Shown here one piece after another: positions 20,764 through 61,186 of a DNA stretch of 64,000 nucleotides; positions within the stretch are counted from its first letter, which is position 1; every line of letters begins with the position of its first letter. The DNA is from an uncultured Pseudomonadota bacterium (GTDB lineage: Bacteria > Myxococcota_A > Bradymonadia > Bradymonadales > GCA-2716585): NCBI GenBank assembly GCA_937890335.1, contig CALBXO010000841.1, positions 200 through 64,199 of the forward strand. Direction: 5' to 3'. The notes below the pieces were generated by a model, which was not told the DNA's origin, did not search any database, and saw only the letters and a list, made by a program, of their open reading frames with translations. A program made the position numbers and the translations under genes.

Positions 20764-20947
20764 CGGCAATTTTTTCAGGTGGAGCCGCAAACCTACGCCG
20801 CCCGCCCCCCGTGGTCAACGGATTCCCAGCCTGCCTCGGCCGTCCGACATCCAGTGTCGCACGCGCCCATCACGAGCGTCGGGACCGGGAGCCCGACCTG
20901 TGTTCGTGGGGCGGGAGGCGGGCCGGCCTTTGAGACGCCCTTAACGA

Positions 20948-22168
20948 TCAGACCTTGCCGAACAACAGTGATGTGTTGATGCCGCCGAACGCGAAGTTGT
21001 TGCTGGCGACGACGCTCAGCTTGATGTCGCGGGGCTCGCCAACCACGTAGTCCAGAGCTGCGCAGTCCGGATCGGCCGTGTCCAGGTTGCGGGTCGGGGG
21101 CACGAATCCGTCGCGAAGCATCGCGAGGCAAAAGATGGATTCAACTGCGCCGCAGGCGCCCAGCGTATGGGCCGTGTGCCCTTTGGTGGAGCTGATTGGC
21201 ACGTCCCCGCCGTACACGGACTGTGTCGCCAGGGACTCGCAGATGTCCCCGACTTTCGTAGCGGTCGCGTGCGCGTTGATGTACTGCACCGATGAGGCGT
21301 CGAGTCTGGCGTCCTCGAGTGCCAGGCGCATTGCAGCTGACATCCCATCCACGGATGGGGACGTGATGTGTTGGCCGTCGCAGCTCGTGCCGTAGCCCAG
21401 AACTTCGGCGTGAATGTGGGCGCCCCGCGCGCGGGCACGTTCGTAACTCTCGAGAATAAGAGTACCGGCGCCCTCACCCACCACCAGTCCATCGCGGTCG
21501 GCGTCAAAAGGCCGAGGGGAGCGCTCGGGGGCATCGTTGAACGAGGTCGAGGTAGCGTAGAGGAGATCGAAGACGCCGGAGTGCGTAAAGTGAAGCTCCT
21601 CGGCGCCCCCGCAGACCATGATATCCTGCTGGCCAAACTTGATGGCCTCGTATCCGTAGCCGATGCCCTGGCTGCCGCTCGTACAGGCAGAGCAGGTCGT
21701 GTGAATCCTCCCGCGAATCCCATAGAAGATGGCGAGATTGGCCGCGCAGGTGTGGCTCATGAACTTGATGTACGTGCTCGGCGTGAGACCCGCCAGGCTG
21801 TTGCTCTCGAACAGTTGCCGGCAGAACGCCTCAAGCGACGACGAGGACCCGTGGGTGGATCCATATGAGACTCCGGTTCGTCCGCTGGTCAGGTCGTCCG
21901 AGGTCAGACCGGCGTCCGCGACGGCCTGCTCGGTCGCGTGGAGACTCAAAAGGGCGACCCGGCCCATGCCGCGCACCTTCTTGCGCGCAAAGCTCAGCTC
22001 GAGTCCGTCGACCGGTGCCGCGAGGCGAGTCGACAGGTTCCCAATCCGGTCCCAGTCCTCCATGTACCGAACACCGTGCTGGCCGGACTGCAGGGCCGCC
22101 GAGACCTCGTCCAGGTGATTGCCGATGGGCGAGCTGATACCGATCCCGGTGACGACGACTCGATTCAC
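20948..22168 (-). CDS. Beta-ketoacyl-ACP synthase (FabF/FabB-like KS), last gene of the APE-type cluster, copy 1
   Basis: Active-site blocks [11 protein letters not shown] (Cys), NAHATAT (His), [14 protein letters not shown] (His) and C-terminal [12 protein letters not shown]. Confidence 0.9.
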
Positions 22169-22887
22169 GACAGTCCTCCATCAATGCTGATAACCTGCCC
22201 CGTGATGTACCCCGCTTCGGGGCGACACAGAAATGCGATCAAGTCAGCGACCTCCGAGGGTTGGCCCAGGCGCCGCATGGGGATCATCTTGAGAATGGTA
22301 TCGACAGGGGCACCCTCGATCATGTCGGTCTCGATGAGGCCCGGAGCGACGGCGTTGACCGTCACGCCCCGCTTGGCCACTTCCAAGGCCAGCGCCCGTG
22401 TCGCGCCGAGGATCCCCGCCTTGGCGGCTGCGTAGTTGACCTGGCCGCGGTTGCCCCGAAGCGCAGAGACGCTCGACAGGTTCACGATCCTGCCGTGCCG
22501 CCGCCGCACCATGGGCATCACGAGCGGCTGGGTCACGTTGTAGAAACCGCCCAGCGTGGTTCTCAGAACATCGTCCCACTGCTCGGGCTCCATCGCCGGA
22601 AACGGCATATCTCGGACCACGCCCGCGTTGTTGACTACGATGTTGATGTGGAGATCTTCCTCGAGGAGCGCGTCCACGGCGGCGCCGGCCGCAGCGCGGT
22701 CTCCCACGTCAAACTCGAGCAGCCGCACCTCAACTGCGCACGCCTCTTTGATCTGGGCCTGGACGGCTTCGGCCATCGCCCGGTTGGTGCGGTAGTTGAG
22801 CAGGATGGAATGGCCGTCCGCCGCCAGGCGCCGTGCCACAGCCGCACCAATCCCGCGGCTCGCTCCGGTTACGAGGGCCCAGCTCAT
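22165..22887 (-). CDS. 3-oxoacyl-ACP reductase (FabG-like SDR ketoreductase), copy 1
   Basis: Start [17 protein letters not shown] (TGxxxGIG), NNAG, and S...YAAAKAG catalytic residues. ATGA overlap with the upstream DH stop (22884-22887). The track ORF to 23604 is an antisense-type extension. Confidence 0.9.
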
Positions 22888-23330
22888 CGAGTCCTGGCTA
22901 GTTTCCATACCTCTCCCATGACCACGTTGAGGCGAGCCGTTGCGACCAGCTCGGTCCCCACATGCGCGGTGGTCTCGAACACGGCCAGCGCATCGTCCCC
23001 ACCCCACACGAGCGTGGCCTCTTGTACGACACGCTCGCCAACAGCCAGCCACTGGCGGTGCAGCGTCATTCGACGGCACCCAAGCAAAAGCCCCGGCTGG
23101 ACCGGGCTTCCCACACTCTGACACTTGAGCCCCGCAAACACCCCGACGCACTGAGCCATGTACTCGATGCTGACCAGCGCAGGCACACCTTCCGGCTCCA
23201 GGAACAGCGACTCCTCCCGAATCGTCGTCGCCGCCACAGCCCGCACACCATCGAAGTCCACGACCTCGTCCAACAGGACCATGGGATGGTCGTGCGGAAG
23301 GAGGTCTGCGGGGGACGGATACTGGCTCAT
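22884..23330 (-). CDS. Hot-dog fold 3-hydroxyacyl-ACP dehydratase (APE-cluster DH), copy 1
   Basis: [23 protein letters not shown], the N-terminal block typical of FabA/FabZ-like dehydratases in aryl-polyene clusters. ATGA overlap with the upstream gene. Confidence 0.8.
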
Positions 23331-23983
23331 GACGCGACTCCGACCACGCCAAACCAATCCGCCCCGAGCCGCACAGTCCCGTTTCCCTCGTCGACAGCGC
23401 GCAGCAGCTCCAACGTGGCCTGCGCCGGCACAACTTCACCTCCACCGGCCGCGCCAAACCTTCGCACGAGCTCGAGTGTGGGTCCCCCGGACCCCTGGGC
23501 CTCCAAACGCAGGGCCACCGCGCCAGACCGATGGTCGCTCGCGTACAGACCCGCGGGCCAATCCAACTCCGCGAGGATAACACCGACGACCGGAGCGCCA
23601 CCATGGAGGAGTCCGAGCGCCTCGAGCAGAGTCATCGCCAGCGTATCAGCGCCGGCAGCGATCGCTGTGGTGTTGGCCGTGTTCCCGCATGCGATGGCCA
23701 GCGTACTCACCGCGGCGTTGTGAACGCTCGTCTGGAACCGCAGCGGCGACAGCTCGCCGTCCGCGTCACCCATCATGTCGAGCAGTGTCACCGTTGTGTC
23801 GATTTCGCCGAGGACGGAGCCGAAGACGAGGGGGAGCGGTCGGAGGATCATTTCTCCACAGGCCTTTTCGAGTGCCGCGCCAGCCATCCGGGCAATCGAC
23901 GTGGCACGTCGATAGTGTCTCTGGGGAATGAGGCTCCATGTCGGATCGCTGACGGCGCACTGACCCGTCCCAGTGACGATCAC
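23327..23983 (-). CDS. Short KS-like subunit (chain-length-factor-type partner of the adjacent KS), copy 1
   Basis: GTG start gives (M)[11 protein letters not shown], a KS-like N-terminus. About 218 aa, lacking the His-His catalytic blocks. GTGA overlap with the upstream KS stop (23980-23983). The position matches the CLF-like gene in APE clusters. Confidence 0.6.
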
Positions 23984-25137
23984 GCCGGCACCTCGAGCAC
24001 AACGGCGGCATTGCTCCCGCCAAATCCAAAGCTGTTGCTGAGGGCAAGACGGCCGGCCACTCGCTGCGCCGATTCGGACACTGGAATCCCAAGCAGCTCG
24101 TCCAATGGCTCCGCGCCGAGCGTCCCAGGTATCTGCTGCGCTTCGAGGCATAGGATCGTGAACACGGCCTCGGTAGCGCCCGCCGCGCCGAGCTGGTGCC
24201 CCGTTAATGGCTTGGTGGAGACCACGGGCGGCACCTGGCCGAACACCCGCCGCAACGCGAGCGCCTCCGAAGCGTCGTTGTGGAGAGTTCCGGTCCCGTG
24301 GGCGTTGATGAACGCGATGTCACATGCCTCTACTTCGGCCTCGATGAGCGCGCGGGAGATGGCCGAGGACGCGCCCTCAGCCTCGGGGTGCGGGGCCGTC
24401 ATATGGTATGCATCGGTGGTCTCGCCCACGCCGCGCACGGTGGCCCTGGCGACGCCGCTGCGCTCCATCAACAGCCAGGCTCCACCCTCGCCGAGATTGA
24501 TGCCATCGCGCCCGGCAGAGAACGGGCGGCAGCGGTGCGCGGAGAGGATTTTCAGGGACGCGAAACCGCGCAGCGTGAAGTCGCACAGAGAATCGACACC
24601 ACCCACGAGGCAGGCATCTGCGAAGCCCAGGTCGAGCATTCGCGCCGCGGAAGCCAGCGCCTTCGCGCTCGACGTACACGCGGTTGAGACAACATAGCGC
24701 GGCCCAGACAGTCCGGTCTGCAGCGCAATCAGCTCCGGGACTACGTGGAACGGATGGCGGTGGGCCAGACCCCGCGCCGCGGGGATGTGGCCCTCGTGCT
24801 CGGCGTACAGTCTCTCAAGGGTGTCCATCCCACCGGTCGTCGTGCCCAGCACGAGCCCGACGCGCTCGGCGCCCCATCGATCGATCGCCACGTGGAGGCC
24901 GTCCAGAAGGTCTGACATCGAGGCGAGCGCCAACCGGGCCTGCCGCGCGTCATAGATGGCCATCGAATGAGGCAATTCCGGCAGCTTCCCTACGCGACCG
25001 ACCCAGCTCGTCTGCGTTCCCACAGCCTCTTTGCGCAGGCCCGACCGCCCCGCAAGCAGCGCGTCACGCACCTCGTCGGTGTCGGAGCCAAGAGCATTGG
25101 CCACTGAGATGTGAGTGATGGGAAATCGACCGATCAT
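23980..25137 (-). CDS. Beta-ketoacyl-ACP synthase (KS), copy 1
   Basis: VVSTACTSSAKAL (Cys), NAHGTGT (His), STKPLTGHQLGAAG (His), NSFGFGGSNAAV. Start MIGRFPITHISV is preceded by GAGGG. Confidence 0.85.
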   Translation of the reverse strand: MIGRFPITHISVANALGSDTDEVRDALLAGRSGLRKEAVGTQTSWVGRVGKLPELPHSMAIYDARQARLALASMSDLLDGLHVAIDRWGAERVGLVLGTTTGGMDTLERLYAEHEGHIPAARGLAHRHPFHVVPELIALQTGLSGPRYVVSTACTSSAKALASAARMLDLGFADACLVGGVDSLCDFTLRGFASLKILSAHRCRPFSAGRDGINLGEGGAWLLMERSGVARATVRGVGETTDAYHMTAPHPEAEGASSAISRALIEAEVEACDIAFINAHGTGTLHNDASEALALRRVFGQVPPVVSTKPLTGHQLGAAGATEAVFTILCLEAQQIPGTLGAEPLDELLGIPVSESAQRVAGRLALSNSFGFGGSNAAVVLEVPA

Positions 25138-25200
25138 CTTTCCCTCTGCTCTACCATAGAGGCCACAGCACGGCAACGGCGACCAGGTCCTCCGTGTATC

Positions 25201-26436
25201 TCAGGGATCCTGAAACTGGGCCTTGAGCCGCATGGCCTGCGCCGCCTTGCGCTCCAAGCGCTGGCGCGGCCTGACGACGAATGGATTGGCGTCGTCCCAC
25301 ACGTAGCCCGCAAGAATCGATGTGATCTGGCTTGTCATCTGCGGGCTGCGAAAATCAGCGTGGATCAGCTCTGGCAGGGTGCCGGCGTACCACCCATCGA
25401 CAAACGTGCCAAACACCGCGACGCCTCGACGCAGCCAGGCGTCGTAGTCGCCATCCCAATCCACCTTGTCCCCCGCCAGGTTCCGGACCACGAGCTCGGC
25501 GGCCCGGTGCGCCGACGCCACCGCCAGCGTCACGCCGGAGGAGAAGATGGGATCGAGGAAACCCGCGGAGTTCCCCACGAGCGCGTAGCCCGGGCCAAAG
25601 GTCCGCGTCACCGCCGACCCAAACCCCGAGACGGAGCGCGGCGGCATCGCGAACGGACGGCCACCGACGCGTTCCACCAACTTTGGCGAGCTCGCCAACA
25701 GCCTGGCGAACGCAGTGGCGGGGTCGCCCGCGACCTCTTCCTGCGGACCCACGAATCCCACTGAGGTTTTGCCACGCAGAGGAATGACCCACGCCCAGAC
25801 TCGCTCAAGACTCACGATCCAGATGCGGCCGTCGTCGCGACCGTCCAGGCCGTCACCTTCTACGTGGGCAAAGACGCTGCCGCGCCGGGGGCCGGTGCTG
25901 GGCACGCAGAGATCCAGCAAGCGCGGCAGGACGCGGGCGGGACCGGTGGCATCAATGACGAACCGCGCTTCCATCACACGCTGACCCAATGCGGAGTCAC
26001 ACGTCAGCCGCGGCCGTACACCGGGCTCGAAACCCGTGACAGTCCACCCGAAACGGAGATCTGCCCCTGCGGCAGCCGCAGCGTCAGACATCGCGGTGTC
26101 AAAGTCGGCACGCTCGACCTGCCACGTCCACCCCCAACTCGCAGCGGACGCGTGCTCGAACGAAATCACCGCGCGGCTGTCCCCACGCAAGAAGGTGGCG
26201 CCCGGCTTGCGCACATAGCCGCGTGCGCCGAGGGCCTCCACCATCCCCACCCGGTCCAGATAGTCCATGCATTGGGGCAGAAGGCTCTCGCCCAGCGCGA
26301 AGCGCGGAAACTGGGCGCGCTCCAGGACACAGACCTCGACCCCAGCCTTGCGCAAGGTAAGCGCGGCCATCGACCCGGCCGGGCCTGCGCCGACGACGAC
26401 CACGTCGATTCGTTCGTTGCGCTCCTCGACTGTCAC
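25201..26436 (-). CDS. FAD-dependent halogenase-type oxidoreductase, copy 1
   Basis: GTG start overlapping the upstream stop. Dinucleotide fold VVVVGAGPAGSMAAL. WxWxIP-type motif VWAWVIPL and FLDPIFSSG (Fx.Px.Sx.G) motif. Confidence 0.75.
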   Translation of the reverse strand: MTVEERNERIDVVVVGAGPAGSMAALTLRKAGVEVCVLERAQFPRFALGESLLPQCMDYLDRVGMVEALGARGYVRKPGATFLRGDSRAVISFEHASAASWGWTWQVERADFDTAMSDAAAAAGADLRFGWTVTGFEPGVRPRLTCDSALGQRVMEARFVIDATGPARVLPRLLDLCVPSTGPRRGSVFAHVEGDGLDGRDDGRIWIVSLERVWAWVIPLRGKTSVGFVGPQEEVAGDPATAFARLLASSPKLVERVGGRPFAMPPRSVSGFGSAVTRTFGPGYALVGNSAGFLDPIFSSGVTLAVASAHRAAELVVRNLAGDKVDWDGDYDAWLRRGVAVFGTFVDGWYAGTLPELIHADFRSPQMTSQITSILAGYVWDDANPFVVRPRQRLERKAAQAMRLKAQFQDP

Positions 26437-27023
26437 GGCCCGGAGTTCTCCAATGTCTGGAAAGTCAGCGCTACGACGTCGAGGATGTAGCCGCGACCCC
26501 CGTGGGTCAAACGAGAGTGGCGCGGAGGCGCGCCGGCCCGTGCACCCCCCTCGAACTCGACGACGACTCCGTCCTCGAACTCGCGACGCATGACGCGACC
26601 GTCGCTCCACAATTCCTCGACCCACATGGAGTGCGACCGGAACCGGTGCAAGCCATCGGGTTGCACCATGTGCGGATCTCCAGTGAGCAGCAACCGATGC
26701 ACGTCCTGAAGAAGGAAGGCCGGCGGGAAGGGCCAGCGCTGGTCACCCAGGTACATCTGCGCGTCGATCGCCGTCCCGGTCTGGACCACGGAGAACACGC
26801 GCACGCCCTGGGGCCCGAGCCCAATCACCGTGAGACGATCGCCCACCTTCTCTACGACGCAGTCGACGGCGAGCGCGCGACCGTCGTAGTCACCCGAGAG
26901 CGACTGCCGCGTCGAGAAGTCCAGTGGGTACTGCGCCGGCGCCGCGAGCGCCGGGGCCTGCACCGCCGGCGGAACCGTGGCGCAGCTTGCGACCAGCAGC
27001 AACAGCGCAACGCACGCTTTCAT
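26433..27023 (-). CDS. Small lipoprotein (DUF3261-like position in APE clusters), copy 1
   Basis: MKACVALLLLVASC lipobox signal. About 196 aa. Sits between the MMPL exporter and the FAD enzyme, as in APE loci. Confidence 0.6.
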   Translation of the reverse strand: MKACVALLLLVASCATVPPAVQAPALAAPAQYPLDFSTRQSLSGDYDGRALAVDCVVEKVGDRLTVIGLGPQGVRVFSVVQTGTAIDAQMYLGDQRWPFPPAFLLQDVHRLLLTGDPHMVQPDGLHRFRSHSMWVEELWSDGRVMRREFEDGVVVEFEGGARAGAPPRHSRLTHGGRGYILDVVALTFQTLENSGP

Positions 27024-27063
27024 GTGGCCCTCCGCAACAGGGGGAGAATCTGTACACATTCTC

Positions 27064-29406
27064 TCATGGGGCGTTCTCGGGGTCAGCCTGGTGAACGAGC
27101 AGCCAGGCAGACGGCGCGACGAGCACGGAAACCGTGACACCGATACCCACCGTGAGCCCGATGGCCTGCAGCGCCGGCGCCTGCGACATGCCCAGCAGAC
27201 CAAAGCCAAGCACTGTGGTCACGCAGGCCATCGCCATGCTCACGAGCGCCGCGACGACGCTGTCCGTCTCCCCGGTCGACTCGGCGAGAAACACCCCGTA
27301 GTCGACGCCGATACTGAGCACGAGGAGGAGACTGATCAGGTGCAGAATGTTCATCTGTACGCCAAACATCCCCAGCAGCGCCGCCGTCGTCGCTGCCGCG
27401 AGCACCGCGGGCGCAAACGCGGCCAGGACGCGCCGCGGCTTGCGCAAACGCACCGTCAGGACGAGCAGGATCGCCACAAGTCCCAACGGGACCATATGGG
27501 TCGCGCGGGAGCGAAAGCGGCCGTAGAGGTCCGCCATGAACGTGCGTTGGTCGAACAGGAGCCCGCCCTCCTCCTCGACCCGCGCCTCGACAGCAGCGGA
27601 GTCCTTCACACCGCGCAGGAACGTGAGCGCCGCTGTGCGCTCTCCCTCTCCATCACCGGGCAGCGGTACCAGGAACGGCGACAGGAGCGGCGCGAGGGGA
27701 CCGTCCTGAAGCTCAGACAACAGCAACGGCTCGGCGGGCTCCAGGAACCCTGCAAAGAGGGCGGGCTTGAACGCGTCGGCCTCCAGGGCCGCAAGTGTCC
27801 TCCGAGAGAGGTCCCCGGCCGCAAAGAACTTTTCGCCATTGCGCCGCTGCAAATCGGGGCCGAAGACCACACGGTGGAGCGACGAAAACCCCTCCAACTC
27901 TCCCGACTTCACGGCATCGCCCAACACCCTGGCCACCCGATCATTCCCGTCTAGCACACTGTCAGTCGGCCCGGAGACTACAACCAGTCGCCCGGCGTCC
28001 ACACGCGCCACACGCGCCCGCACTCTGGCGTCCTGGGCCTGAAGCTCCGGGTCCAACCGAGTCAGAACCGAGGGGTCGTCCACCCAATCGACCTGCGGCA
28101 GACCCACCGCGCACAGGAGCGCACACATGACGGGAACCACCGTGTGGGGCCAGCGTCGCCGCCGGCGTACAAGTCCGGCGGCCATCCTTGCGATGGCGGT
28201 GTGCAGGCGACCCACGCGAGGCGCGTCGGGCAGCATGACCGGGAGGACGAGCAGGGTCGTTGCGACCGCCGCCACCACGCCGGAGATCGCAAAGACCGCG
28301 ACCTCCACCAGGCCGGGAAACCCTGTGCCAGCAAGCGCCGCAAACCCCAATACAGTGGTCAACGAGCCGATCAGGATGGCGCCACCCACCGCCCGCGCCG
28401 ATCCCCGCTGCCCCACAAGCCAATGATGGTTGAACAGGTGCACCGGGTAGTCGATGGTCACGCCGATGAGCGTCGCACCGAAAGCCAGCGTCAATCCGTG
28501 GAGCGTATCGAACACCACGAGGTTGACGAACAACCCCGTGAGCAAGCCGGTGGCGATGGGAAGGTGTGCGAGCAGCCATGGGCGCGGCGTGACGAACACC
28601 CCGAGGAACAGGAGCGCCACCGCCACAATCGACATGGCGCTGATGCGGGTGATGTCCGCCTGGATGCTCCTTTGGGCCTCCACCGCGAACATCTGCACGC
28701 TGCTCTGTTCCAGGCGTGTCCCGTCGGAGCGCAGCTGCTTCACCAGCCTACCCACGAGGTCTTGGATTGGCTTCTGGGCGGACGACTCGAACGCGGACGA
28801 CCGGGTCGTCGCGAAGACCACGGCGCAGCAGCCGTCCCGAGAGACGAAGCGGCCGTTCTTGACGGCGAGCCCGCCCTGTTGCCCTGCCCGAAACCGCTCG
28901 ATGGCGTCGAGCCATGTCAGCAGCGGATCGCGGGTCGCGAATGTGCGCACCAACGGGCCGGCGGGCCCCCCCAGCTCGCGCTTGAGGCGGGCCGCAGCCG
29001 CTCGGAGCCCCGCGTCGTCCAGCCGCCCGTCAAGTCCCTCGGGATCGTCGGTAGCCAGCAGGTACCGCCGCGGGAAGAAGAGTTTGTAGAAGGCGCCCTC
29101 CATCTCGGGACTCGGCCCCGTAGACACCCAGGCGACCTCGGGCTGCTCGGCAAGCTCGGCGCGGAGCGTGTCGGCGCGGTCCAGCGCCGTGGCCAGGTCG
29201 GGGCCCTCCAGCGTGAGTATCATCGTCCGAGAAACAGGGGCGCGTGTGAGCGCACGGGAGAGAGCGCCCAGCTCCGGGTCGTCGGGCTCGGGCAGGAAGT
29301 GGGTAATCTGGGTGGTTACGTCGAACGTTAGCGCCACGCCGATGAGCATTCCGACGACCGCCACACCCCACACCACGACACCCATCCAACGGCGAGGGCC
29401 GTTCAT
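27064..29406 (-). CDS. MMPL/RND-superfamily membrane exporter, copy 1
   Basis: 780 aa with two hydrophobic bundles of about 5-6 TM, each preceded by a large soluble loop. ATGA overlap with the LolA-like gene. Confidence 0.8.
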   Translation of the reverse strand: MNGPRRWMGVVVWGVAVVGMLIGVALTFDVTTQITHFLPEPDDPELGALSRALTRAPVSRTMILTLEGPDLATALDRADTLRAELAEQPEVAWVSTGPSPEMEGAFYKLFFPRRYLLATDDPEGLDGRLDDAGLRAAAARLKRELGGPAGPLVRTFATRDPLLTWLDAIERFRAGQQGGLAVKNGRFVSRDGCCAVVFATTRSSAFESSAQKPIQDLVGRLVKQLRSDGTRLEQSSVQMFAVEAQRSIQADITRISAMSIVAVALLFLGVFVTPRPWLLAHLPIATGLLTGLFVNLVVFDTLHGLTLAFGATLIGVTIDYPVHLFNHHWLVGQRGSARAVGGAILIGSLTTVLGFAALAGTGFPGLVEVAVFAISGVVAAVATTLLVLPVMLPDAPRVGRLHTAIARMAAGLVRRRRRWPHTVVPVMCALLCAVGLPQVDWVDDPSVLTRLDPELQAQDARVRARVARVDAGRLVVVSGPTDSVLDGNDRVARVLGDAVKSGELEGFSSLHRVVFGPDLQRRNGEKFFAAGDLSRRTLAALEADAFKPALFAGFLEPAEPLLLSELQDGPLAPLLSPFLVPLPGDGEGERTAALTFLRGVKDSAAVEARVEEEGGLLFDQRTFMADLYGRFRSRATHMVPLGLVAILLVLTVRLRKPRRVLAAFAPAVLAAATTAALLGMFGVQMNILHLISLLLVLSIGVDYGVFLAESTGETDSVVAALVSMAMACVTTVLGFGLLGMSQAPALQAIGLTVGIGVTVSVLVAPSAWLLVHQADPENAP

Positions 29407-30038: not shown

Positions 30039-30453
30039 CGGGTGTCTGTGGGAGGAGGTTTCCCTCGGCATCGGTCGTCACCAGTGTCGTGTGCGCGCGC
30101 GCTGCTCGGCGGCCTTCAGTTACGTTGGTCACGTCGTACGCCACGACGATCCTGGGCGTCAGTTCCCGAAACCAGGCCTTCACCTGGACCCGGTCACCGT
30201 AGCGCAAAGGGTGTACATGGCGACACCTGGTTTCTGTCACCACCATGCGGCACCCGATGGCCAGCACATCCTCCACGTCCATCCCGTTTTTTCGCGCGAG
30301 CGCAGTACGGGCGATCTCCAAGTATTTGTAGTAGTGCCCGTGCCACACGATCCAGCCGGCGTCCACATCGTGGAATGGGACCTCAATCTCCACGGTCACA
30401 GACTCTCTCTGCTTCAATCGTCGCCCCCCAACGCCAGCTCGCCACGTCGCCAC
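30016..30453 (-). CDS. 4HBT/YbgC-type hot-dog acyl thioesterase, copy 1
   Basis: VEIEVPFHDVDAGWIVWHGHYYKYLEIART matches the 4HBT catalytic-Asp block. An alternative TTG start at 30417 would give a TTGA overlap with the ammonia-lyase stop. Confidence 0.75.
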   Translation of the reverse strand: MATWRAGVGGRRLKQRESVTVEIEVPFHDVDAGWIVWHGHYYKYLEIARTALARKNGMDVEDVLAIGCRMVVTETRCRHVHPLRYGDRVQVKAWFRELTPRIVVAYDVTNVTEGRRAARAHTTLVTTDAEGNLLPQTPDALLQGR

Positions 30454-31916
30454 GCGCCGAGTAGCTCCGCGATGTCCAGGTCCTGTCTGCGATCCTCCTT
30501 GACCGGCGCCACGCGCAGACGCACCTCCGCATGGACCGCCATTGTCGCGGGACGCAGTGCATCCTCGCCCCGCAGGTCGACCGCCTGGCAGGCCGCCAGA
30601 AGATTCATGATGGCCACGGTCTCCGAGAGCTCCAGGACGCGCTGGGCATCACGGGCTGCGATGGTCCCCATGGAGACTTTGTCCTGGTTGTGACACTCGG
30701 TGCTCCGGCTGAACGACGCGGCGGGCATGGTCAACTTCAGCGCCTCCGCGGTCAGCGCCGACGTGGCGATGGAGACCGCCTTGAACCCATGCCCCACCGA
30801 GCCGCCGGGCCAGGCCAGACTCGGGGTCAACGCGTTGTTGTACGCCGGGTTGCACAGGTGCTGGACCTGCCTGTCGAGCAAATCCGCGATGCTCGCCACT
30901 GCAGCCTTCAGCGCGTCCATCGCGAAAGCGATGTGGCCGCCATAGAAATTCCCGCCGTGTAGAACGTCACCCGTCGCCGGGTCAAAGATGGGATTGTCGT
31001 TGACACTGTTGATCTCCGTCTCCACGAAGGTCTCCAGCATCGGCAGCGCGTCGACGAGGACGCCAATCACGTGGGGCGCGCAGCGCAGGGAGTACCGATC
31101 CTGGATGCGCGGGGCGGGCCGGTCGGGGCCACCAACAAGCGCATCCCGTATCCACCCGGCGGCGCGCGCCTGCCCAGGGTGGGGCTTGGCCTCAAAGATG
31201 CGCGCATCGAAATGGGAGGCGTTGCCGTCCAGTACGTCCACGACCATGGCGGAGACGGTTGCTGCGGCCCGCGCCAATTTGCGCGCGCGAGAGCAGGCCA
31301 GCGCCGCAAGTCCCGTCATCACGCTCGTCCCGTTCATCAGCGCCAGGCTCTCCTTGGGCAGCAGGGCCAGCGGCTCGATCCCCAGGGCGTCGAACACGCG
31401 GGCTGTGGTGGTGAGCTCGCCCTCATAGAGGACCTCGCGCGACCCGCTCAGCACCGCCGCAATGTAGGACAGCGGCGTCAGATCTCCGCTGGCCCCCACA
31501 GAGCCCTCGCAGGGGATGCGCGGAAGGATCTGTGAGTTGACCAGCTGACACAATCGCTCGACCACTACGGGCCGCACCGCCGAATGTCCGCGGGACAACG
31601 ACACCGCCCGCACCACCATCACCGCCGTGGTCTCCTCCGGGGTCAGACAGGCGCCGGTGCCGCATCCGTGGAACCGGACCAGGTTGCGGGCCAGCTCCAG
31701 CCGGCTGTCCGCCGACTCGACATCGCGCACGCAATCATCACCAAACCCAGTCGTGACACCGTAGACCGCGCGGCCCTCTGCGAGCTGTCGCTGAAGCGCC
31801 TCGTGGGAGCAGCGACACACCTCGGCGGCGTCTGGATGCAGAGCGATGTGTTGCCGTCCGTGTGCTGCATCCACCACGTCGTCGATTCCCAAGGGCTCGA
31901 CCCCGATCATCAACAT
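30414..31916 (-). CDS. Aromatic amino acid ammonia-lyase (HAL/PAL/TAL family, MIO enzyme), copy 1
   Basis: MIO-forming triad in GSVGASGDLTPLSYIA. Family blocks GVTTGFGD, NLVRFHGCGTG, QDRYSLRC, GGNFYGG. Confidence 0.9.
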   Translation of the reverse strand: MLMIGVEPLGIDDVVDAAHGRQHIALHPDAAEVCRCSHEALQRQLAEGRAVYGVTTGFGDDCVRDVESADSRLELARNLVRFHGCGTGACLTPEETTAVMVVRAVSLSRGHSAVRPVVVERLCQLVNSQILPRIPCEGSVGASGDLTPLSYIAAVLSGSREVLYEGELTTTARVFDALGIEPLALLPKESLALMNGTSVMTGLAALACSRARKLARAAATVSAMVVDVLDGNASHFDARIFEAKPHPGQARAAGWIRDALVGGPDRPAPRIQDRYSLRCAPHVIGVLVDALPMLETFVETEINSVNDNPIFDPATGDVLHGGNFYGGHIAFAMDALKAAVASIADLLDRQVQHLCNPAYNNALTPSLAWPGGSVGHGFKAVSIATSALTAEALKLTMPAASFSRSTECHNQDKVSMGTIAARDAQRVLELSETVAIMNLLAACQAVDLRGEDALRPATMAVHAEVRLRVAPVKEDRRQDLDIAELLGAWRRGELALGGDD

Positions 31917-32830
31917 TCATCACCCCAGAAGTCGTAGAAATTGAACCAGTTGTCTGGAGCCTGCCGGGCGTAGTGCTCCACCCGGCTGGCATAGCGTTGC
32001 GCGAGATCCTCGAGTGCCCGTGCCTTGGCTTTGCCTCGAGGCAGCACGATCTTGTCGGAAAACGGCTCACAGTACAGATCGTAGCGATCGCCACCACGAT
32101 ACAGCCCGAATGTCAGGTACACCGGGCACCCCAAAAGCGCCGCAAGGATGTAGGGCCCGGTCGGAAGTCGCGCCGGTGCGCCCATAAACTGGACCGTCGC
32201 GGTGCGCGGATTGAGGCCCACACGGTCGCCCAGGAGAGCGACGAACTCTCCGGCCTCGACCCGCTCCTTGGCCGCGAAGACCGCGTCCAGGCTGCCCGGA
32301 CGGATCGCCAATACGCACGCGCCCCCCGCCGGGTCCAGCTGGCTGAGCACCTCATTGATCATCTTGGCATTGTCGACGTACGCTAGGATGTTGATCTTCA
32401 TCGCCTCCTGCTCGCCCCCGATGCGCATCGCCTCAAAGCTACCCAGATGCGCTCCGAGCAGGACCGCTCCTCGTCTGGAGTCACGCAGCGCGCTCAGGTG
32501 CTCGTGGCCTGTGCGCGTCACCGTAAATCGGGCCAGCTGGCCGCGAACCAGGAACAGCCGGTCGAGCGTGACCTGACCAAAACGTAGCAAGTGGCGATAC
32601 ACCGTCCCAAAGCCGACCTTGCGCCCATGGACACGTTCCAGGAAAGCCGCTGAGGACCGCCTGGCGGACCTGAAGAAGACGGCGTAGTACGCGATGACCA
32701 CGGTCAGAAACACCCGCGGGACGGCGCGCCCGAATACCGTCGCCAGCAGGACGAACCAGCGCATCCCCAGCGCAGTGCCTCGCTCCCGCGCGGTGAGCCA
32801 CTGGACCGAAGTGTCCCCGTTCTGTGTCAT
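31910..32830 (-). CDS. LpxL/HtrB-type (lipid A biosynthesis-like) acyltransferase, copy 1
   Basis: Start MTQNGDTS with ATGA overlap to the GT2 stop. N-terminal TM segment. The C-terminal half resembles the lauroyl/myristoyl acyltransferase family (LLGDR...VQFMGAPARLPTGPYILAALLGCPV). Confidence 0.6.
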   Translation of the reverse strand: MTQNGDTSVQWLTARERGTALGMRWFVLLATVFGRAVPRVFLTVVIAYYAVFFRSARRSSAAFLERVHGRKVGFGTVYRHLLRFGQVTLDRLFLVRGQLARFTVTRTGHEHLSALRDSRRGAVLLGAHLGSFEAMRIGGEQEAMKINILAYVDNAKMINEVLSQLDPAGGACVLAIRPGSLDAVFAAKERVEAGEFVALLGDRVGLNPRTATVQFMGAPARLPTGPYILAALLGCPVYLTFGLYRGGDRYDLYCEPFSDKIVLPRGKAKARALEDLAQRYASRVEHYARQAPDNWFNFYDFWGDEC

Positions 32831-33576
32831 CTGCGCAGCCGTCGTATGCGGCGTCCAGTAGCCACGCGCCACATCGCCTCGATTACCAGCCGGGTGTGCG
32901 CCCAGGAGATCAGCACATTGTCCTGAAAGGGCCGGAAGTGCGAGACGCCGCCCTGCGCCGCGCTCAGATACCGCACCGTGACAGGCTCGTTCACGACCGC
33001 GACCCCGGCCCACACCATGCGGACGGCAACCTCGATGTCAAAGTCCATGCGGTCGCCGCTGGCCCGCGCCGCCGGAAGCGCCGTGGCCACAGGATAGACG
33101 CGGAAACCGCACATGGGGTCCGTGATGGCGAGCCCGCCCGTCTCGATCCACGTCCACACGCGTGTGATCTGACGAGCGCAACGCCGGAGAAGTGGCGCGG
33201 AGGCGTCAAATTGTGGGGCGCCCAGAACGAGGGCGTCCGGGTCCCGGCGCGCCGCGTCTACGAAGTCGACAAGCCGCGTCAGGTCGTGCTGGTGGTCGGC
33301 GTCCACCTGCAACGCGTGGGAGAATCCGCGGGTCTCCGCCAGCGAGAGGCCGTCCTTGACCGCCGCCCCCTTTCCGCCGTTCTCGGACCTGGTATGAACC
33401 GACACGCCAGCCAGCGCGCCAATGGACTCCAGCGCAGCCCGAGCCTGCTCCGATCCCGCGTCATCCACGACGAAGACCTCGTCGACCACAGCACGCAAGG
33501 CGCGGACGACGGCTCCAATCGTGCGGGGGTTGTTGTAGGTCGGCACGACGCCGCACACGCGGAAGTCGTCGGTCAT
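32827..33576 (-). CDS. Family-2 glycosyltransferase, copy 1
   Basis: CGVVPTYNNPRTIG, VFVVDDAGSEQ and DxD-like QVDADHQHD. ATGA overlaps on both sides. Confidence 0.8.
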   Translation of the reverse strand: MTDDFRVCGVVPTYNNPRTIGAVVRALRAVVDEVFVVDDAGSEQARAALESIGALAGVSVHTRSENGGKGAAVKDGLSLAETRGFSHALQVDADHQHDLTRLVDFVDAARRDPDALVLGAPQFDASAPLLRRCARQITRVWTWIETGGLAITDPMCGFRVYPVATALPAARASGDRMDFDIEVAVRMVWAGVAVVNEPVTVRYLSAAQGGVSHFRPFQDNVLISWAHTRLVIEAMWRVATGRRIRRLRR

Positions 33577-35201
33577 GGGAACTCCCCAAAAACAAGAGTG
33601 CCGGAACTGCAGACTTCCTCTCCCATGAGCAGCCGGAACGCCACCTGATTTGGGCGCGCGATCTCCAGGCTCAGGACCAGTCGGTCGTCCGGGCCGATGG
33701 GTCGTTTGAATTTGAGCCGGTGGACCTCGTGAAGAGGGCCAAACTCGGGCCACGCGTCACGGATCTGCCGCGCGACGATTCTTTGTAATTGCACTACGCC
33801 GGGCAGGATCGGGAAGCCCTCGAAATGTCCCCTGAAGTACAGCAGATTTGCCGGCACGTGCACGTCGTACCAGCGGCAGTCGCCCTCCGAAGGCAGGGGG
33901 GTGATCGGAATCTGTGTCGTGTCCTCAAGGTCCGCCCGCCGCACCTTGCCAAGCTCGGTACGGGGCAGTTCGTCCACGACGTGGATCCTCGGAATCACGC
34001 TGCGTTGGAGGTGCTGCCCGAGGTAGCCGCGCAAGTCCCCGAGACCATCTCGCACCACGACGAACGCGGACAGAGACGCCGTACGCAAGGGCGAACCCGC
34101 CTCCGCAAACACGGCGGCGTCCACCACATCCGGGTGGGCTAGAAGCAGGTCCCGAACGTCGCCCACCGCGACACGGATGCCGCCAACCTTGACCACATCG
34201 TCGAGCCTGCCCAGGTGCTCAAACCCGTTGCCGTCGGCGCGCACCTTGTCCGCACACGAGTACGGACGAGGGCAATCCGGGGGCAGAAACGGCGAGTCGA
34301 TGAGCAGAGTTCCGTCGTCGTCGACGTCCCACACTACACCGGGAAGCGGCAGGAACGGCTCACGCGGCGACGCGCGCCGGTAGGCAATCCCCCCTGTCTC
34401 CGTGGACCCGAGCACCTCGGTGACCTGCATGTGGTGACGCGAGTCCAGTTCCCGCGCCACAGTGGGCGGCAGCGGCGCGCCCGAGGAGAAAACGTGGCAC
34501 CGGGGAGCAGTGAGGTCGGACAGCACGCAAAGCGCCTGTAGATGCGCTGGCACGGTGACAAGAACATCCGCCTCCTCCAGCTGTGCCGCCACCGCGTTGG
34601 GATGGAACGGCGCGACCCTGACGAACGACCCTCCCGAGCCAAGGGGAACAAGCACCGTGAACAGCAGGCCGTAGATGTGTCTAGGCGCGACGGTACCCAG
34701 GACGCGGGTGCCTGGTTGGATGCCGAACGTATCCCGGATGACCGCTGCCTCGCCCAGGAGTTGGCCAGCCGTTTTGGTCATCGGGCGGGCGTCACCGCCA
34801 GTGCCGGAGGTGTACAACACGACCAACGTCCGCTCTGGCGGGTGACTGCGAAAACTCTTGAGGGTCGGTGTGCTCAGAGCGGACGAGCGCCAGGGAGTGG
34901 TCAGGACAAGGGCGGACTCAGAGTGGGCTACGCTGCGGACGCCCTCGGGCGCGTCGGTCGGCGCCAGGACCACGCGCCACCCCAGCTCCCACGCGGCCAG
35001 CATCTGGACCGCGAACTCATACCGGTCGCTCTCGGAGACGAGCAACGCTGCAGCCTGGCCGCTGGCGCGAAGTACCCCCGCGCACCCAGCGACGTCCGCG
35101 AGAAGCTCCGACAAAGTGGTGGTGCCCTGCGCCCCGCGCGCTACGACGCAACCGGGTCCACGAAAGCGGTCGACCGCCTGTAGCGAGCCCGCCTCAGCCA
35201 T
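33573..35201 (-). CDS. AMP-dependent synthetase/ligase fused to a C-terminal hot-dog dehydratase domain, copy 1
   Basis: Adenylation motifs YTSGTGGDARP, GSTETGGIAY, VVKVGGIRV, LPRTELGKVRR. C-terminal FRGHFEGFPILPGVV (FabA/Z-type His block). Start MAEAGSL at 35201. Confidence 0.85.
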   Translation of the reverse strand: MAEAGSLQAVDRFRGPGCVVARGAQGTTTLSELLADVAGCAGVLRASGQAAALLVSESDRYEFAVQMLAAWELGWRVVLAPTDAPEGVRSVAHSESALVLTTPWRSSALSTPTLKSFRSHPPERTLVVLYTSGTGGDARPMTKTAGQLLGEAAVIRDTFGIQPGTRVLGTVAPRHIYGLLFTVLVPLGSGGSFVRVAPFHPNAVAAQLEEADVLVTVPAHLQALCVLSDLTAPRCHVFSSGAPLPPTVARELDSRHHMQVTEVLGSTETGGIAYRRASPREPFLPLPGVVWDVDDDGTLLIDSPFLPPDCPRPYSCADKVRADGNGFEHLGRLDDVVKVGGIRVAVGDVRDLLLAHPDVVDAAVFAEAGSPLRTASLSAFVVVRDGLGDLRGYLGQHLQRSVIPRIHVVDELPRTELGKVRRADLEDTTQIPITPLPSEGDCRWYDVHVPANLLYFRGHFEGFPILPGVVQLQRIVARQIRDAWPEFGPLHEVHRLKFKRPIGPDDRLVLSLEIARPNQVAFRLLMGEEVCSSGTLVFGEFP

Positions 35202-35832
35202 GCCCCTCGCCGATGATTCTGCGCAACGCGCGGTCGTGCAGGCCAGTGCCGAACTCCCGGAAGCGGACCTTCCGCACAATGTACTCCCCTGTGAACATGC
35301 ACCCCATCAGAGCATAGGCGATGATCCCGGTGTACAGGGCCCACCACGAGACTGGCGCCCACAGTGCCAGGCCCGCTGCGATGGTGCCGTTGACGACGAA
35401 GAAGACGCACCACACGAGCGTGACCTTGCGGCAGTACGGCAGGTGCGCGTCGGGAAGGTCTGGGTGCTGCAGACGCGCAAAACGCTCGACCATCGACACC
35501 GGCTGGCGCAACGTGACGCCAAAGCCAACGAGCAGCGCTGCGTTGATCAGTACCGGCATGAGGAGCACGTAGACTGGGTCGTTGAGAACGACGCCGAGCA
35601 CGATGAGTCCCACCACCGCCAGCGGCAGTCGCGCCACTGCCCAGAGTTCCGCCCGTCTGCGCCCCCGGGCGCGCATCACGAACGCACCGATGACGACGCC
35701 GACGAGCAGGAGGCCGCCGCCGCGCAGGCTCCAATGCGTGAGCGCAAGGTACACCAACGCCGGGTAGAGCAGGACCAGAGTCGTGTTGATAACGGCCGTT
35801 ACGACCTTGAGGGTGGTGTCAGACCGGGACAT
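35194..35832 (-). CDS. Integral membrane protein (COG4648-like position in APE clusters), copy 1
   Basis: 212 aa with about 6 hydrophobic helices. Located between the ACP and AMP-ligase genes. Confidence 0.65.
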   Translation of the reverse strand: MSRSDTTLKVVTAVINTTLVLLYPALVYLALTHWSLRGGGLLLVGVVIGAFVMRARGRRRAELWAVARLPLAVVGLIVLGVVLNDPVYVLLMPVLINAALLVGFGVTLRQPVSMVERFARLQHPDLPDAHLPYCRKVTLVWCVFFVVNGTIAAGLALWAPVSWWALYTGIIAYALMGCMFTGEYIVRKVRFREFGTGLHDRALRRIIGEGHG

Positions 35833-36346
35833 CCGCCGGTTGGGTCATCAGGGACTCCACCAGGTCGACGACATCTCGAACACGACGCACTTCCATGAGA
35901 CTCTTCTCAGGAACACGCGTCCCGGTGAACTCCTGCAGCTTCACCGCCATGTCCAGCGCGTCGATGCTGTCGAGGTCGAGGTCCTCAAACAGGTGGACAT
36001 CCAAGGTGATCTCTCCCGGGTCGATCTCGAACATCTCTGAAAGCGTATCCCGAATCTTCACGAAGATCTGCTCGCGCGGACCCAGAACCACAGCCTCGCG
36101 GCGCGCGTCTACGTAGGCGGCAAGTGACCGCAGTGATGTGAAAATCGCTCGGTTATCGTCGTCGCCCGCCGTGAACTCCACACCGTAGGCGCGCTTGATG
36201 ACCATGGCGATCTCAAGCGCGTCGATGGAGTCCAGATCCAGCTCCTCGAAGAGGTGGCCTTCCGGGGGGTGCGAATCCAGGTCGACGTCAGGCAACAACA
36301 GAGCCTCCACGATGAGACTCAGCAGCTCTCTTTCAAATGCGTTCAT
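35819..36346 (-). CDS. Tandem di-domain acyl carrier protein, copy 1
   Basis: Two phosphopantetheine attachment motifs: EELDLDSIDALEIAM and EDLDLDSIDALDMAV. Confidence 0.85.
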   Translation of the reverse strand: MNAFERELLSLIVEALLLPDVDLDSHPPEGHLFEELDLDSIDALEIAMVIKRAYGVEFTAGDDDNRAIFTSLRSLAAYVDARREAVVLGPREQIFVKIRDTLSEMFEIDPGEITLDVHLFEDLDLDSIDALDMAVKLQEFTGTRVPEKSLMEVRRVRDVVDLVESLMTQPADVPV

Positions 36347-36357
36347 TGGACCAAAGG

Positions 36358-37137
36358 CTACGACCCATGGCTGGACTTGAGGCGTCCTTCATAGGTGCGT
36401 CGCAGACCCCGCATCAAAGCGCGATCGCCAGCCTTCTGATCCGCCAACCTGACCGGATCCATGGACTCAATCGCGTAGTGGACAACGTTAAGCGGAAAAC
36501 TATACCACCCCCTACCCTTAGTCAACACGGGTGGATCGCACCGAATGAACAGTGGCTGAAGCGGCACTCCGGCCGCCCGCGCAATGCGCATCGCACCCCT
36601 TTTGAAAGGCAATAACTCACCTGGCGAGCTGCGGGTCCCCTCGGGAAAAATCAGCACAGGACAGCCACTCATGACACTGGCGCAGGTGCGCTCCACGACC
36701 TCGATTCCACCTGCCGCCGTGCCGTCACCGCCATCGAGGAAGCCGCAACAACGAAACAGGAGTCCCAGGAGCGGATTGTGGTATCGCTTGCCTTTGACCA
36801 GCACCGTGGCGTCCGGGTAGGCAGCGAGCAGCGCGATGACGTCCACGAGGGTCGGATGGTTGGCCACGAGGACAAAGCAGGGCGCCGGACGGGGCGGGTC
36901 GAAGGACCGGGGGTTGTAGTCGAAAAACCCCATCCATCGCATGTAGTCGAAGAACCACCGAAACGTCGTGGACACCCAGCGCCGGCAGCGGCGGGCGCGC
37001 ACTTCTGACGGGCCAGGGCCGAGCAGCCATACGAGGGGAAGCACCGACCACCCGAGGACGCCCCCGCCGCAGTAGAACACCACGAACGCCGCCCCGACCA
37101 GACCGCTGCGGACCCAGCGATGGACTGTCTTCCACAC
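36358..37137 (-). CDS. PlsC-type lysophospholipid (1-acyl-glycerol-3-phosphate-like) acyltransferase, first gene of the cluster, copy 1
   Basis: HX4D motif VANHPTLVD and FPEGTRS block. N-terminal TM segment. Confidence 0.85.
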   Translation of the reverse strand: MWKTVHRWVRSGLVGAAFVVFYCGGGVLGWSVLPLVWLLGPGPSEVRARRCRRWVSTTFRWFFDYMRWMGFFDYNPRSFDPPRPAPCFVLVANHPTLVDVIALLAAYPDATVLVKGKRYHNPLLGLLFRCCGFLDGGDGTAAGGIEVVERTCASVMSGCPVLIFPEGTRSSPGELLPFKRGAMRIARAAGVPLQPLFIRCDPPVLTKGRGWYSFPLNVVHYAIESMDPVRLADQKAGDRALMRGLRRTYEGRLKSSHGS

Positions 37138-37146
37138 GACGCGGCA

Positions 37147-37174
37147 TTGTGGGCGAGACGGCTGCGGCCCACAA
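37147..37174. promoter_or_regulatory. Perfect 8-bp inverted repeat TTGTGGGC-N12-GCCCACAA just upstream of the first cluster gene, copy 1
   Basis: Read directly from sequence. It lies 10 nt upstream of the plsC-like start (37137) and 135 nt downstream of the kinase stop. It could be an operator, a 5'-UTR hairpin or a weak terminator. Confidence 0.25.
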
Positions 37175-37308
37175 GAGCGTCAGCGGAATCCACATCCTTG
37201 GAATCGGCTCGAAAGATGAACGGGCCGGCGCCAAAGGAGCCAGCCCATTGCCTGCTCGCCCAGTATCCCTTCGGTGCCGACCCCTGCCTGGGTACCCCGG
37301 TACGCCCG

Positions 37309-49966: not shown

Positions 49967-50029
49967 CTTTCCCTCTGCTCTACCATAGAGGCCACAGCAC
50001 GGCAACGGCGACCAGGTCCTCCGTGTATC

Positions 50030-61175: not shown

Positions 61176-61186
61176 TGGACCAAAGG

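Follow-up and report, generated by a model that had tools for sequence, protein, structure and literature searches.

Aryl polyene (APE) loci, which the literature calls the biosynthetic gene cluster (BGC) family found most widely in bacteria and whose products protect against reactive oxygen species, are grouped in a survey as xanthomonadins, arcuflavin, flexirubins and, as the fourth class, the "flexirubin-like" APEs of E. coli and V. fischeri (PMC10165715). The APE clusters of Pseudomonadaceae and marine myxobacteria have been placed with the last of these (PMC10165715; PMC6226438), those of marine myxobacteria having been likened to the clusters of Photobacterium, E. coli and V. fischeri (PMC6226438). 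The core set of the ape BGC comprises the ketosynthase (KS) genes apeO/R, the acyl carrier protein (ACP) genes apeE/F, the chain-length factor (CLF) gene apeC, the dehydratase genes apeI/P, the ketoreductase (KR) gene apeQ and the transporter gene apeM (Grammbitter et al., bioRxiv 10.1101/2020.12.19.423268), and a gene-function scheme for the ape genes is available (PMC8253772; bioRxiv 10.1101/2020.12.19.423268). The APE-lipid clusters of E. coli CFT073 and Xenorhabdus doucetiae combine a core resembling a type II polyketide synthase (PKS) with lipid anchoring and LolA/MMPL/DUF3261 export. Here we describe a locus of the same logic in 64,000 nucleotides of contig CALBXO010000841.1 (the window) from an uncultured bacterium.

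Judged by its predicted proteins, the locus forms a single intact operon whose product would be an aryl-polyene pigment lipid anchored in the membrane. It includes two accessory enzymes, an ammonia-lyase and a halogenase, and provides an intact APE example from a divergent, very poorly sampled host. The operon lies within a 24.8-kb tandem repeat. We hold with good confidence that the whole is best explained as an APE-lipid operon with a lyase/halogenase pathway, whose second copy is a recent duplication in part of the population or an artefact.

Gene content and kinship with the E. coli APE cluster

An earlier note on this DNA had described a 17-gene cluster on the minus strand at 20948-37137; our open reading frame (ORF) listing and Pfam/NCBIfam scans agree gene by gene and confirm every call, together with the order (Table 1). 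The first gene starts exactly at 37137 and the last stops exactly at 20948, and public gene calls on contigs of identical sequence, from which the start codons were refined, likewise give 17 genes. None of these has an internal stop. Neighbouring genes overlap by 1-25 nt at 11 of the 16 junctions and are never more than 63 nt apart, and from this packing we take the 17 genes to form one operon. The catalytic motifs that were checked are all in place: the acyltransferase HX4D, the two DLDSI sites of the di-domain ACP (di-ACP), the lyase ASG, the Cys/His residues of both KS and the KR YxxxK.

When the window proteins were compared by BLASTP with apeA-apeR of E. coli CFT073 (c1204-c1186, RefSeq record), 15 of the 17 found one-to-one, reciprocal-looking best matches in ApeC-ApeR, at identities from 24% (ApeM) to 51% (ApeQ); only the lyase and the halogenase are without a CFT073 counterpart. 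The order is D, E/F, G, H/I, J, K, L, M, N, O, (C), P, Q, R, with apeC alone moved. The ape core set is complete, each of its proteins having the corresponding CFT073 protein as its top match. Also present are a predicted ApeH-like aryl-acid adenylating/ACP-loading enzyme, a lipid-anchoring module (homologues of ApeD, both halves of ApeJ, and ApeK) and an export module (homologues of ApeG, the LolA-like ApeL, the RND/MMPL protein ApeM and the DUF3261 protein ApeN). By this homology, the operon is an APE-lipid operon of E. coli/V. fischeri architecture. We assign it to the fourth class because it shares the E. coli synteny, because the flexirubin equivalogs fall below their cut-offs and because no dialkylresorcinol or XanB2-type genes were seen among the coding-like ORFs scanned in the window.

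The central proposal of the earlier note, a type-II-PKS-like APE system with lipid anchoring and LolA/MMPL export, is strongly supported by the 15 CFT073 matches, by the ApeP/ApeI families and by the match of the CLF to PDB chain 6QSP_B, and the conserved APE synteny that it invoked is borne out by the nearly identical order in CFT073. Its label "flexirubin/xanthomonadin-type" holds at the superfamily level but is imprecise, given the E. coli/V. fischeri architecture and the sub-threshold flexirubin equivalogs. Compared with CFT073, the window operon lacks the ApeA lipoprotein and the ApeB methyltransferase and gains the two accessory enzymes; its ApeE/F and its ApeH/I each form one fused protein, whereas the fused E. 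coli ApeJ is split into GT2 and LpxL-type genes, and apeC stands between the ApeO and ApeP genes rather than upstream of apeD. The starter would differ as well, being probably 4-coumarate from the operon's own lyase in the window and 4-hydroxybenzoate (4-HBA) from UbiC in E. coli.

At the level of single proteins, the PlsC-type acyltransferase has its HX4D at residue 94 and is 32% identical to CFT073 ApeD (E 2e-26). The di-ACP has DLDSI twice, as phosphopantetheine sites with Ser40 and Ser127, and scores above cut-off for both NCBIfam NF006617 and NF003757, its N-terminal half being 38% identical to ApeE and its C-terminal half 43% identical to ApeF. The Pfam scan gave no family above cut-off for the ApeG-like membrane protein. 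The ApeH-ApeI fusion matches ApeH at E 2e-17 and is 31% identical to ApeI; among NCBIfam models, its ligase part best matches TIGR02372, a 4-coumarate-CoA ligase family (E 7e-38, below cut-off). Further along the operon, the ApeL-like protein begins with a signal-like segment, the DUF3261 lipoprotein has the lipobox VASC at residues 11-14, the ApeO-like KS has Cys153, His280 and His313, and the ApeQ-like reductase has TGASRGIG and YAAAK. The ApeC-like CLF matches 6QSP_B at E 7e-8, a chain which we take to be Xenorhabdus ApeC, the subunit that pairs with ApeO. We also considered a primary fatty-acid synthase and a lipid A locus; the ApeP/ApeI families, a CLF, an adenylation enzyme and complete Ape synteny exclude both.

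Table 1. Features of the window, with strand and the evidence for each assignment (percentages are protein identities; E, expectation value)
Feature	Position	Strand	Evidence or content
ApeD-like lysophospholipid (PlsC-type) acyltransferase, 259 aa	36358..37137	-	PF01553 E 3e-19; first gene of operon
Di-domain acyl carrier protein (ApeE-ApeF fusion), 175 aa	35819..36346	-	two PP-binding stretches
ApeG-like integral membrane protein, 212 aa	35194..35832	-	44% to CFT073 ApeG, E 7e-30
ApeH-ApeI fusion, 542 aa: predicted aryl-acid adenylating/ACP-loading enzyme with C-terminal hot-dog dehydratase	33573..35201	-	AMP-binding, AMP-binding_C, FabA and ApeI-like domains
GT2 glycosyltransferase, 249 aa (ApeJ N-terminal half)	32827..33576	-	PF00535; 41% to ApeJ residues 1-240, E 9e-52
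LpxL-type acyltransferase, 306 aa (ApeJ C-terminal half)	31910..32830	-	PF03279; 36% to ApeJ 246-549, E 2e-58
MIO-dependent aromatic amino-acid ammonia-lyase, 498 aa	30414..31910	-	PF00221 E 4e-156; no E. coli counterpart
ApeK-like 4HBT (hot-dog) thioesterase, 127 aa	30016..30399	-	PF13279, PF03061; 31% to ApeK, E 1e-23
ApeL-like LolA-family periplasmic carrier, 211 aa	29403..30038	-	PF19574, PF03548; 26% to ApeL, E 1e-9
ApeM-like MMPL/RND exporter, 780 aa	27064..29406	-	PF03176; 24% to ApeM over 630 aa, E 1e-22
ApeN-like DUF3261 lipoprotein (LolB-like), 196 aa	26433..27023	-	PF11659; weak ApeN match, E 4e-5
Flavin-dependent halogenase (by motifs), 411 aa	25201..26436	-	PF04820 Trp_halogenase E 6e-23, FAD_binding_3; no E. 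coli counterpart
ApeO-like elongating ketosynthase, 385 aa	23980..25137	-	PF00109, PF02801; 38% to ApeO, E 2e-75
ApeC-like chain-length-factor subunit (Ketoacyl-synt_2), 218 aa	23327..23983	-	PF13723 E 7e-25; 29% to ApeC, E 3e-10
ApeP-like 3-hydroxyacyl-ACP dehydratase, 148 aa	22884..23330	-	PF22817, 47.9 bits vs cut-off 27; 33% to ApeP
ApeQ-like 3-ketoacyl-ACP reductase (FabG2-type short-chain dehydrogenase/reductase), 247 aa	22165..22908	-	PF13561; 51% to ApeQ, E 3e-75
ApeR-like ketosynthase, 406 aa	20948..22168	-	NF006587, 549.5 bits vs cut-off 470; 50% to ApeR, E 6e-141; last gene
Intergenic region upstream of operon, presumed regulatory, 171 bp	37138..37308	-	inside duplicated unit
Duplication unit, copy 1	13934..38765	.	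about 47 first recD codons, recB, recC, APE operon, 171-bp spacer, 3' 1,457 nt of kinase gene
Duplication unit, copy 2	38763-63594	.	self-BLAST
Operon copy 2	45777..61966	-	all 17 genes base-for-base identical to copy 1, offset +24,829
Junction chimera ORF, RecD 1-47 :: histidine kinase 87-570, in frame	37309..38904	-	at the duplication junction
Native full-length membrane histidine kinase, 570 aa	62138..63850	-	HisKA, HATPase_c; directly upstream of operon

Ammonia-lyase, halogenase and the putative head group

Both accessory genes recur in related loci. A lyase-guided protein scan of one genome per GTDB species gave at least 573 confirmed matches, from which 80 loci (L001-L080) were kept and searched by tblastn with all 17 proteins; 13 easily detected genes served as the core. 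These 13 stand in the same order as in the window in 58 of the 80 loci, and in 45 a halogenase occupies the same slot, flanked by the exporter/DUF3261 genes on one side and the KS gene on the other. Most of the hosts belong to Pseudomonas; the others include Shewanella, Photobacterium, Grimontia, Methylomicrobium and metagenome-assembled genomes (MAGs) of Myxococcota. This lineage is not alone in having the APE variant with a lyase and a halogenase, which is widespread and common in Pseudomonas, Vibrionaceae and Myxococcota. It makes a reasonable heterologous-expression target for a halogenated APE lipid. The proteins of the 80 clusters are only about 25-66% identical to those of the window, and lyase identity in the scan is at most 60% among the matches listed. 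The window Ape proteins are closest to proteins of Myxococcota/Polyangia MAGs, and three Myxococcota loci (L002, L008 and L009) have the CLF gene between KS and dehydratase, as the window does. Literature searches turned up nothing specific on the lyase-bearing APE variant and no description of a product of the variant with both genes, and to our knowledge none has been described for the latter.

The lyase has the ASG triad of the MIO cofactor at residue 140, F-H at 80-81 and NQD at 408, and falls below the cut-off of every NCBIfam equivalog, whether HutH, FlxA, BagA, PAL or TAM. An exact public protein exists (P0001), and the nearest non-identical lyase is 63% identical. At motif 2, Gln marks tyrosine or phenylalanine ammonia-lyases (TAL, PAL) and Glu marks histidases (HAL) (PMC3992019); the window enzyme carries Gln, in an NQD that aligns with that of the tyrosine aminomutase SgTAM, and by its motifs it is not a histidase. 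At motif 1, which governs selectivity, His-Leu denotes TAL, Phe-Leu PAL and Ser-His the group of HAL, FlxA and SgTAM; FlxA, "HAL-like" at this motif, is a proven TAL with some PAL activity too (PMC3992019). Motif 1 of the window lyase is Phe-His, outside all these reference classes, and its His falls on the histidine of the SgTAM "RSH". By our own count, with the SEQRES offset set by the catalytic Tyr63, that residue is His93, which contacts the phenol of the substrate.

Among the 80 related loci, motif 1 reads [F/Y]-H-G-C-G in 79 and motif 2 reads HNQDKVSMG in 78, and on these signatures the APE-linked lyases are a distinct, conserved clade. Its motif 1 differs from those of HAL/FlxA/SgTAM (S-H), RsTAL (H-L) and PAL (F-L), and no substrate assignment for the clade was found in the literature searched.

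By its motifs, the FAD protein encoded at 25201..26436 is a flavin-dependent halogenase. It has GAGPAG at residue 16, the Lys of KPGATF at 77, WAWVIP at 214 and FLDPIFSSG at 293, and these four hallmarks (GxGxxG, Lys, WxWxIP and FxxPxxSxG) align with CmlS, the Lys of VRKPGATF falling on that of CmlS KKPSATF, which we take to be the catalytic Lys71. The best PDB match is 3NIX (E 9e-93), followed by CmlS 3I3L (E 7e-41); further entries named as halogenases are, as we recognise them, Bmp2, Mpy16, CndH and PltA. With CmlS, CndH, PltA, Bmp2 and Mpy16, phenol- and pyrrole-type halogenases of solved structure, the window enzyme shares all four motifs and the short length, its 411 residues lying in the same class as the roughly 410-450 residues of the PDB halogenases matched, although its best relative is 3NIX instead. 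Such short halogenases act on carrier-protein-bound substrates; Bmp2 and Mpy16, for instance, act on a carrier-protein-tethered pyrrole. A phenolic ring, and with it a tyrosine-derived 4-coumarate starter, is favoured because electrophilic flavin halogenation should need an activated ring. As the cluster has no methyltransferase, the head group would probably be halogenated, not methylated, and on this evidence it is probably both tyrosine-derived and halogenated. The two suggestions of the earlier note on this point were reasonable: the cinnamate- or coumarate-type starter made by the lyase passes the checks of ASG, NQD and the conserved His, and the halogenated head survives the comparison with CmlS motifs.

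A pathway can be proposed from the homologies found here and, for the chemistry, from the E. coli and Xenorhabdus systems that have been characterised. The lyase would convert tyrosine to 4-coumarate or, less likely, phenylalanine to cinnamate, and the ApeH-like domain would adenylate the acid and transfer it to the di-ACP, on the ApeE-like half. Elongation with malonyl units would then fall to the ApeR-like KS and to the KS/CLF pair ApeO:ApeC, and each unit the ApeQ-like KR and the ApeI-domain and ApeP-like dehydratases would turn into a conjugated double bond. The halogenase may modify the ring ortho to the phenol, probably on an ACP-bound intermediate. The thioesterase, ApeD and the split ApeJ (GT2 plus LpxL-type) would join the chromophore to a sugar-phosphoglycerolipid anchor, and the homologues of ApeG, ApeM (MMPL), ApeL (LolA) and ApeN (DUF3261) would carry the product to the outer membrane, where, by analogy with characterised APEs, it would guard against oxidative stress.

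Several observations weigh against this scheme. Everything beyond homology is deduced. The Phe at the first position of motif 1 denotes PAL, not TAL, under the Watts rule, and the His is shared with HAL. The ligase scores 130 vs 335 bits on the 4-coumarate ligase family and is only 27% identical to ApeH, and 3NIX, the structure closest to the halogenase, is a flavoprotein without an assigned function.

The lyase could also be read as a phenylalanine ammonia-lyase or aminomutase, giving an unsubstituted phenyl head, with the "halogenase" acting elsewhere or as a monooxygenase. In 79 of the 80 loci the Watts selectivity residue is indeed Phe (or Tyr), the lyase's top PDB matches are aminomutases, and FlxA itself has some PAL activity (PMC3992019). 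Yet the His aligned with SgTAM His93 is invariant, the intact WxWxIP and Lys favour halogenation over oxygenation, and the presence of a halogenase with the lyase in 45 of the 80 loci fits a phenol better, flavin halogenases presumably needing an electron-rich ring. We find this alternative rather doubtful and prefer the tyrosine-derived, halogenated head. It is much less credible that the cluster is of flexirubin type, with a polyene acid esterified to a dialkylresorcinol (DAR). The flexirubin pathway too begins with a lyase and a coumarate-ligase-like enzyme (PMC3992019), and the systems of Chitinophaga pinensis (the TAL FlxA and the 4-coumarate-CoA ligase FlxY) and Flavobacterium johnsoniae share with the window the lyase start followed by activation of a cinnamic-type acid. 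FlxA and the window lyase both have Gln in motif 2 and His in motif 1, although FlxA reads S-H and the window enzyme F-H. The NCBIfam models FlxA, FlxB and LolA2 are all matched, and the best PDB match of the halogenase, 3NIX, comes from Cytophaga hutchinsonii (Bacteroidota). All three models, however, score below cut-off (FlxA NF053541 332.6 vs 700 bits; FlxB, a short-chain dehydrogenase/reductase, NF053542 289.8 vs 340; LolA2 NF053544 52.4 vs 125), no DarA/DarB-like DAR genes (darA/darB) turned up, whether in the cluster's 17 genes or in the remaining coding-like ORFs scanned over the 64 kb of the window, and the operon retains Ape-type anchoring enzymes (ApeD/ApeJ-type, for a glycolipid) and the E. 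coli-type synteny.

Nor does a xanthomonadin-type cluster, with 3- or 4-hydroxybenzoate as the precursor of a brominated aryl polyene, account well for the locus, and we consider it highly unlikely. A halogenase gene is present, as is arcA in the xanthomonadin-like arcuflavin clusters of Azoarcus, and a glycosyltransferase, LolA, acyltransferase, exporter and AMP-ligase also occur in xanthomonadin-type clusters (PMC3949708); ACP and dehydratase genes are likewise common to the window, Xanthomonas and Azoarcus sp. BH72, and one related locus (L022) comes from Pseudoxanthomonas. Xanthomonadin clusters obtain 3-hydroxybenzoate or 4-HBA from a XanB2-type chorismatase (PMC3949708), but none was seen in the cluster or the other scanned ORFs of the window, where a lyase supplies the starter instead. 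The gene order, moreover, is that of E. coli ApeD-R in one contiguous operon, not the split layout of Xanthomonas and Azoarcus, whose genes lie at two loci. The E. coli/V. fischeri type of APE-lipid operon therefore remains our assignment.

The 24.8-kb tandem repeat

Self-BLAST pairs 13934-38765 with 38763-63594 without gap or mismatch (24,832 bp, 100% identity). The repeat is head-to-tail, its period is 24,829 bp, and a 3-bp microhomology, GGT, lies at the junction. The junction reads CATCAGGCGCC/GGTGCCCTGCGG (the slash marking the joint), also given as ...GTACATCAGGCGCC/GGTGCCCTGCGGACG.... The left boundary falls inside recD (12423-14075) and the right one inside the histidine-kinase gene. 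The chimeric ORF at the junction starts at the native recD start codon, overlapping the recB stop, and has lost the first predicted transmembrane segment of the kinase. A circular 24.8-kb element is excluded by unique flanks on both sides, by native recD and kinase genes that read through the outer boundaries, and by the lack of mobility genes seen in the unit.

Exact-protein look-ups led to three public MEGAHIT contigs with this DNA, which we compared over the parts fetched: ERZ1283799 k141_548550 (43,378 bp; 3-4 mismatches in about 22-24 kb against the window), ERZ27056333 k141_244004 (40,428 bp; 100% over 11.9 kb) and ERZ964670 k127_108656 (30,943 bp; 100% over 14.9 kb), that is, 99.98-100% identical where compared. 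All three share a right-hand end at window-equivalent 64,960, that of the k127 contig lying at 64,946, an offset of 14 nt that equals 141 minus 127. Since this common end holds only if each contig carries a single unit, the contigs map as single-copy. The 43,378- and 30,943-bp contigs (L082/L089 and L090) run unbroken through the left boundary and the 40,428-bp contig (L088) through the right one, where the same kinase gene adjoins the operon. A de Bruijn unitig cannot repeat a k-mer, and an abundant junction would split contigs at the boundaries, so the junction should be absent or rare in those read sets. The stop shared by these independent contigs, about 960 bp past the right end of the window (L088 position 1), suggests a repeat or a strain-variable boundary there.

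Most likely, the second copy either arose by a recent duplication that only some of the population carries or is an artefact of assembly; it is not an established feature of the lineage. The earlier statement that the cluster is "present twice" is thus literally true of the window, at 100% over 24,832 bp, but the three public assemblies map as single-copy; the further claim that "both copies should be functional" was too confident, resting on an identical repeat that these assemblies appear to lack and on no demonstrated promoter. Two considerations pull the other way. The single-copy state is deduced from sizes, coordinate mapping and de Bruijn-graph logic on contigs that were read in part, and the clean, 3-bp, in-frame junction looks like real illegitimate recombination. 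Given a 3-bp microhomology and no k-mer-sized overlap, a subpopulation variant or recent duplication is somewhat likelier than a pure artefact. Could the duplication instead be real and fixed, giving two functional APE operons, two recB-recC pairs, a RecD-kinase chimera and a doubled dosage of pigment lipid? The GGT microhomology is typical of illegitimate recombination, where an assembler overlap would be k-mer-sized; the junction ORF is in frame; and the operon, its spacer and a further 1.46 kb upstream all lie inside the unit. Against fixation, none of the three single-copy contigs breaks at a boundary, the copies show zero divergence, and by exact match the junction sequence is not in GTDB species representatives, nor the unit-start sequence in JGI metagenome contigs. 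We judge a fixed duplication unlikely and keep to the recent, partial duplication or artefact. Exact-protein look-ups of the lyase (both start sites), MMPL, RecC and chimera proteins gave no record; the index is incomplete and several such genes plainly stand on the retrieved contigs, so these negatives carry no weight, and the missing record of the chimera is not evidence against the duplication.

A bolder and, to our mind, doubtful reading is that the junction is real, that the 24.8-kb recBC plus APE unit has been amplified in a natural aquatic population, and that the operon makes an undescribed, halogenated, coumarate-primed APE-lipid chemotype. If so, a gene-dosage adaptation of a pigment-lipid pathway would have been caught in the wild, in an uncultured, deep-branching Myxococcota-like bacterium, with a chemotype started by a lyase clade that has its own [F/Y]-His selectivity motif and a RecD(1-47)::kinase(87-570) chimera adjoining the operon. 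A 24.8-kb repeat of 100% identity should not be read as biology before confirmation at the level of reads.

Regulation, flanking genes and host

The native histidine kinase may regulate the operon. Its gene (62138-63850) lies on the same strand, without an adjacent response regulator. The arcuflavin cluster of Azoarcus likewise has kinase and regulator genes, arcW and arcX, beside its ACP gene (PMC3949708). The upstream neighbour of operon copy 1 is the chimeric kinase, translationally coupled to recB, in place of the native one. Of the "upstream 171-bp promoter region" that the earlier note placed in the duplicated unit, the location is correct, but no promoter-like site was found there: the 171-bp spacer holds no sigma-70-like promoter, an absence that counts against the operon as read here, if weakly in a genome of 67% G+C. 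If a promoter lay up to about 1.6 kb upstream, the duplication would have copied it with the operon. No intrinsic terminator or Rfam element was found in the spacer, nor a promoter, terminator or Rfam element after the last operon gene, and Rfam and tRNA scans of the whole window gave no matches.

Directly downstream of the pigment operon, across a 184-bp gap and on the same strand, lies a recC-recB-recD operon (12423-20763, minus strand). RecB has one relative at 65% identity (Logan runs ERR3484126-40) and all others below 40%, which points to a very poorly sampled lineage. One public contig, 100% identical where compared, comes from an "aquatic metagenome" sample (PRJEB22997, ERR2206771). 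In this only close relative (L083-L087, ERR3484126-40), recD is followed by SMC/AAA_23-like and WYL-domain genes, unlike the left flank of the window, and only about 0.8 kb is visible upstream of recC. Two large ORFs of the window, at 8718-12086 and 2949-3998 (both minus strand), have coding-like G+C at third codon positions and no Pfam match, and public calls divide the first into a 1056-aa and a 153-aa protein. Neighbouring genes encode a Ser/Thr kinase with AAA and TPR domains (5240-8557), a GDPD phosphodiesterase and a hybrid kinase/receiver protein.

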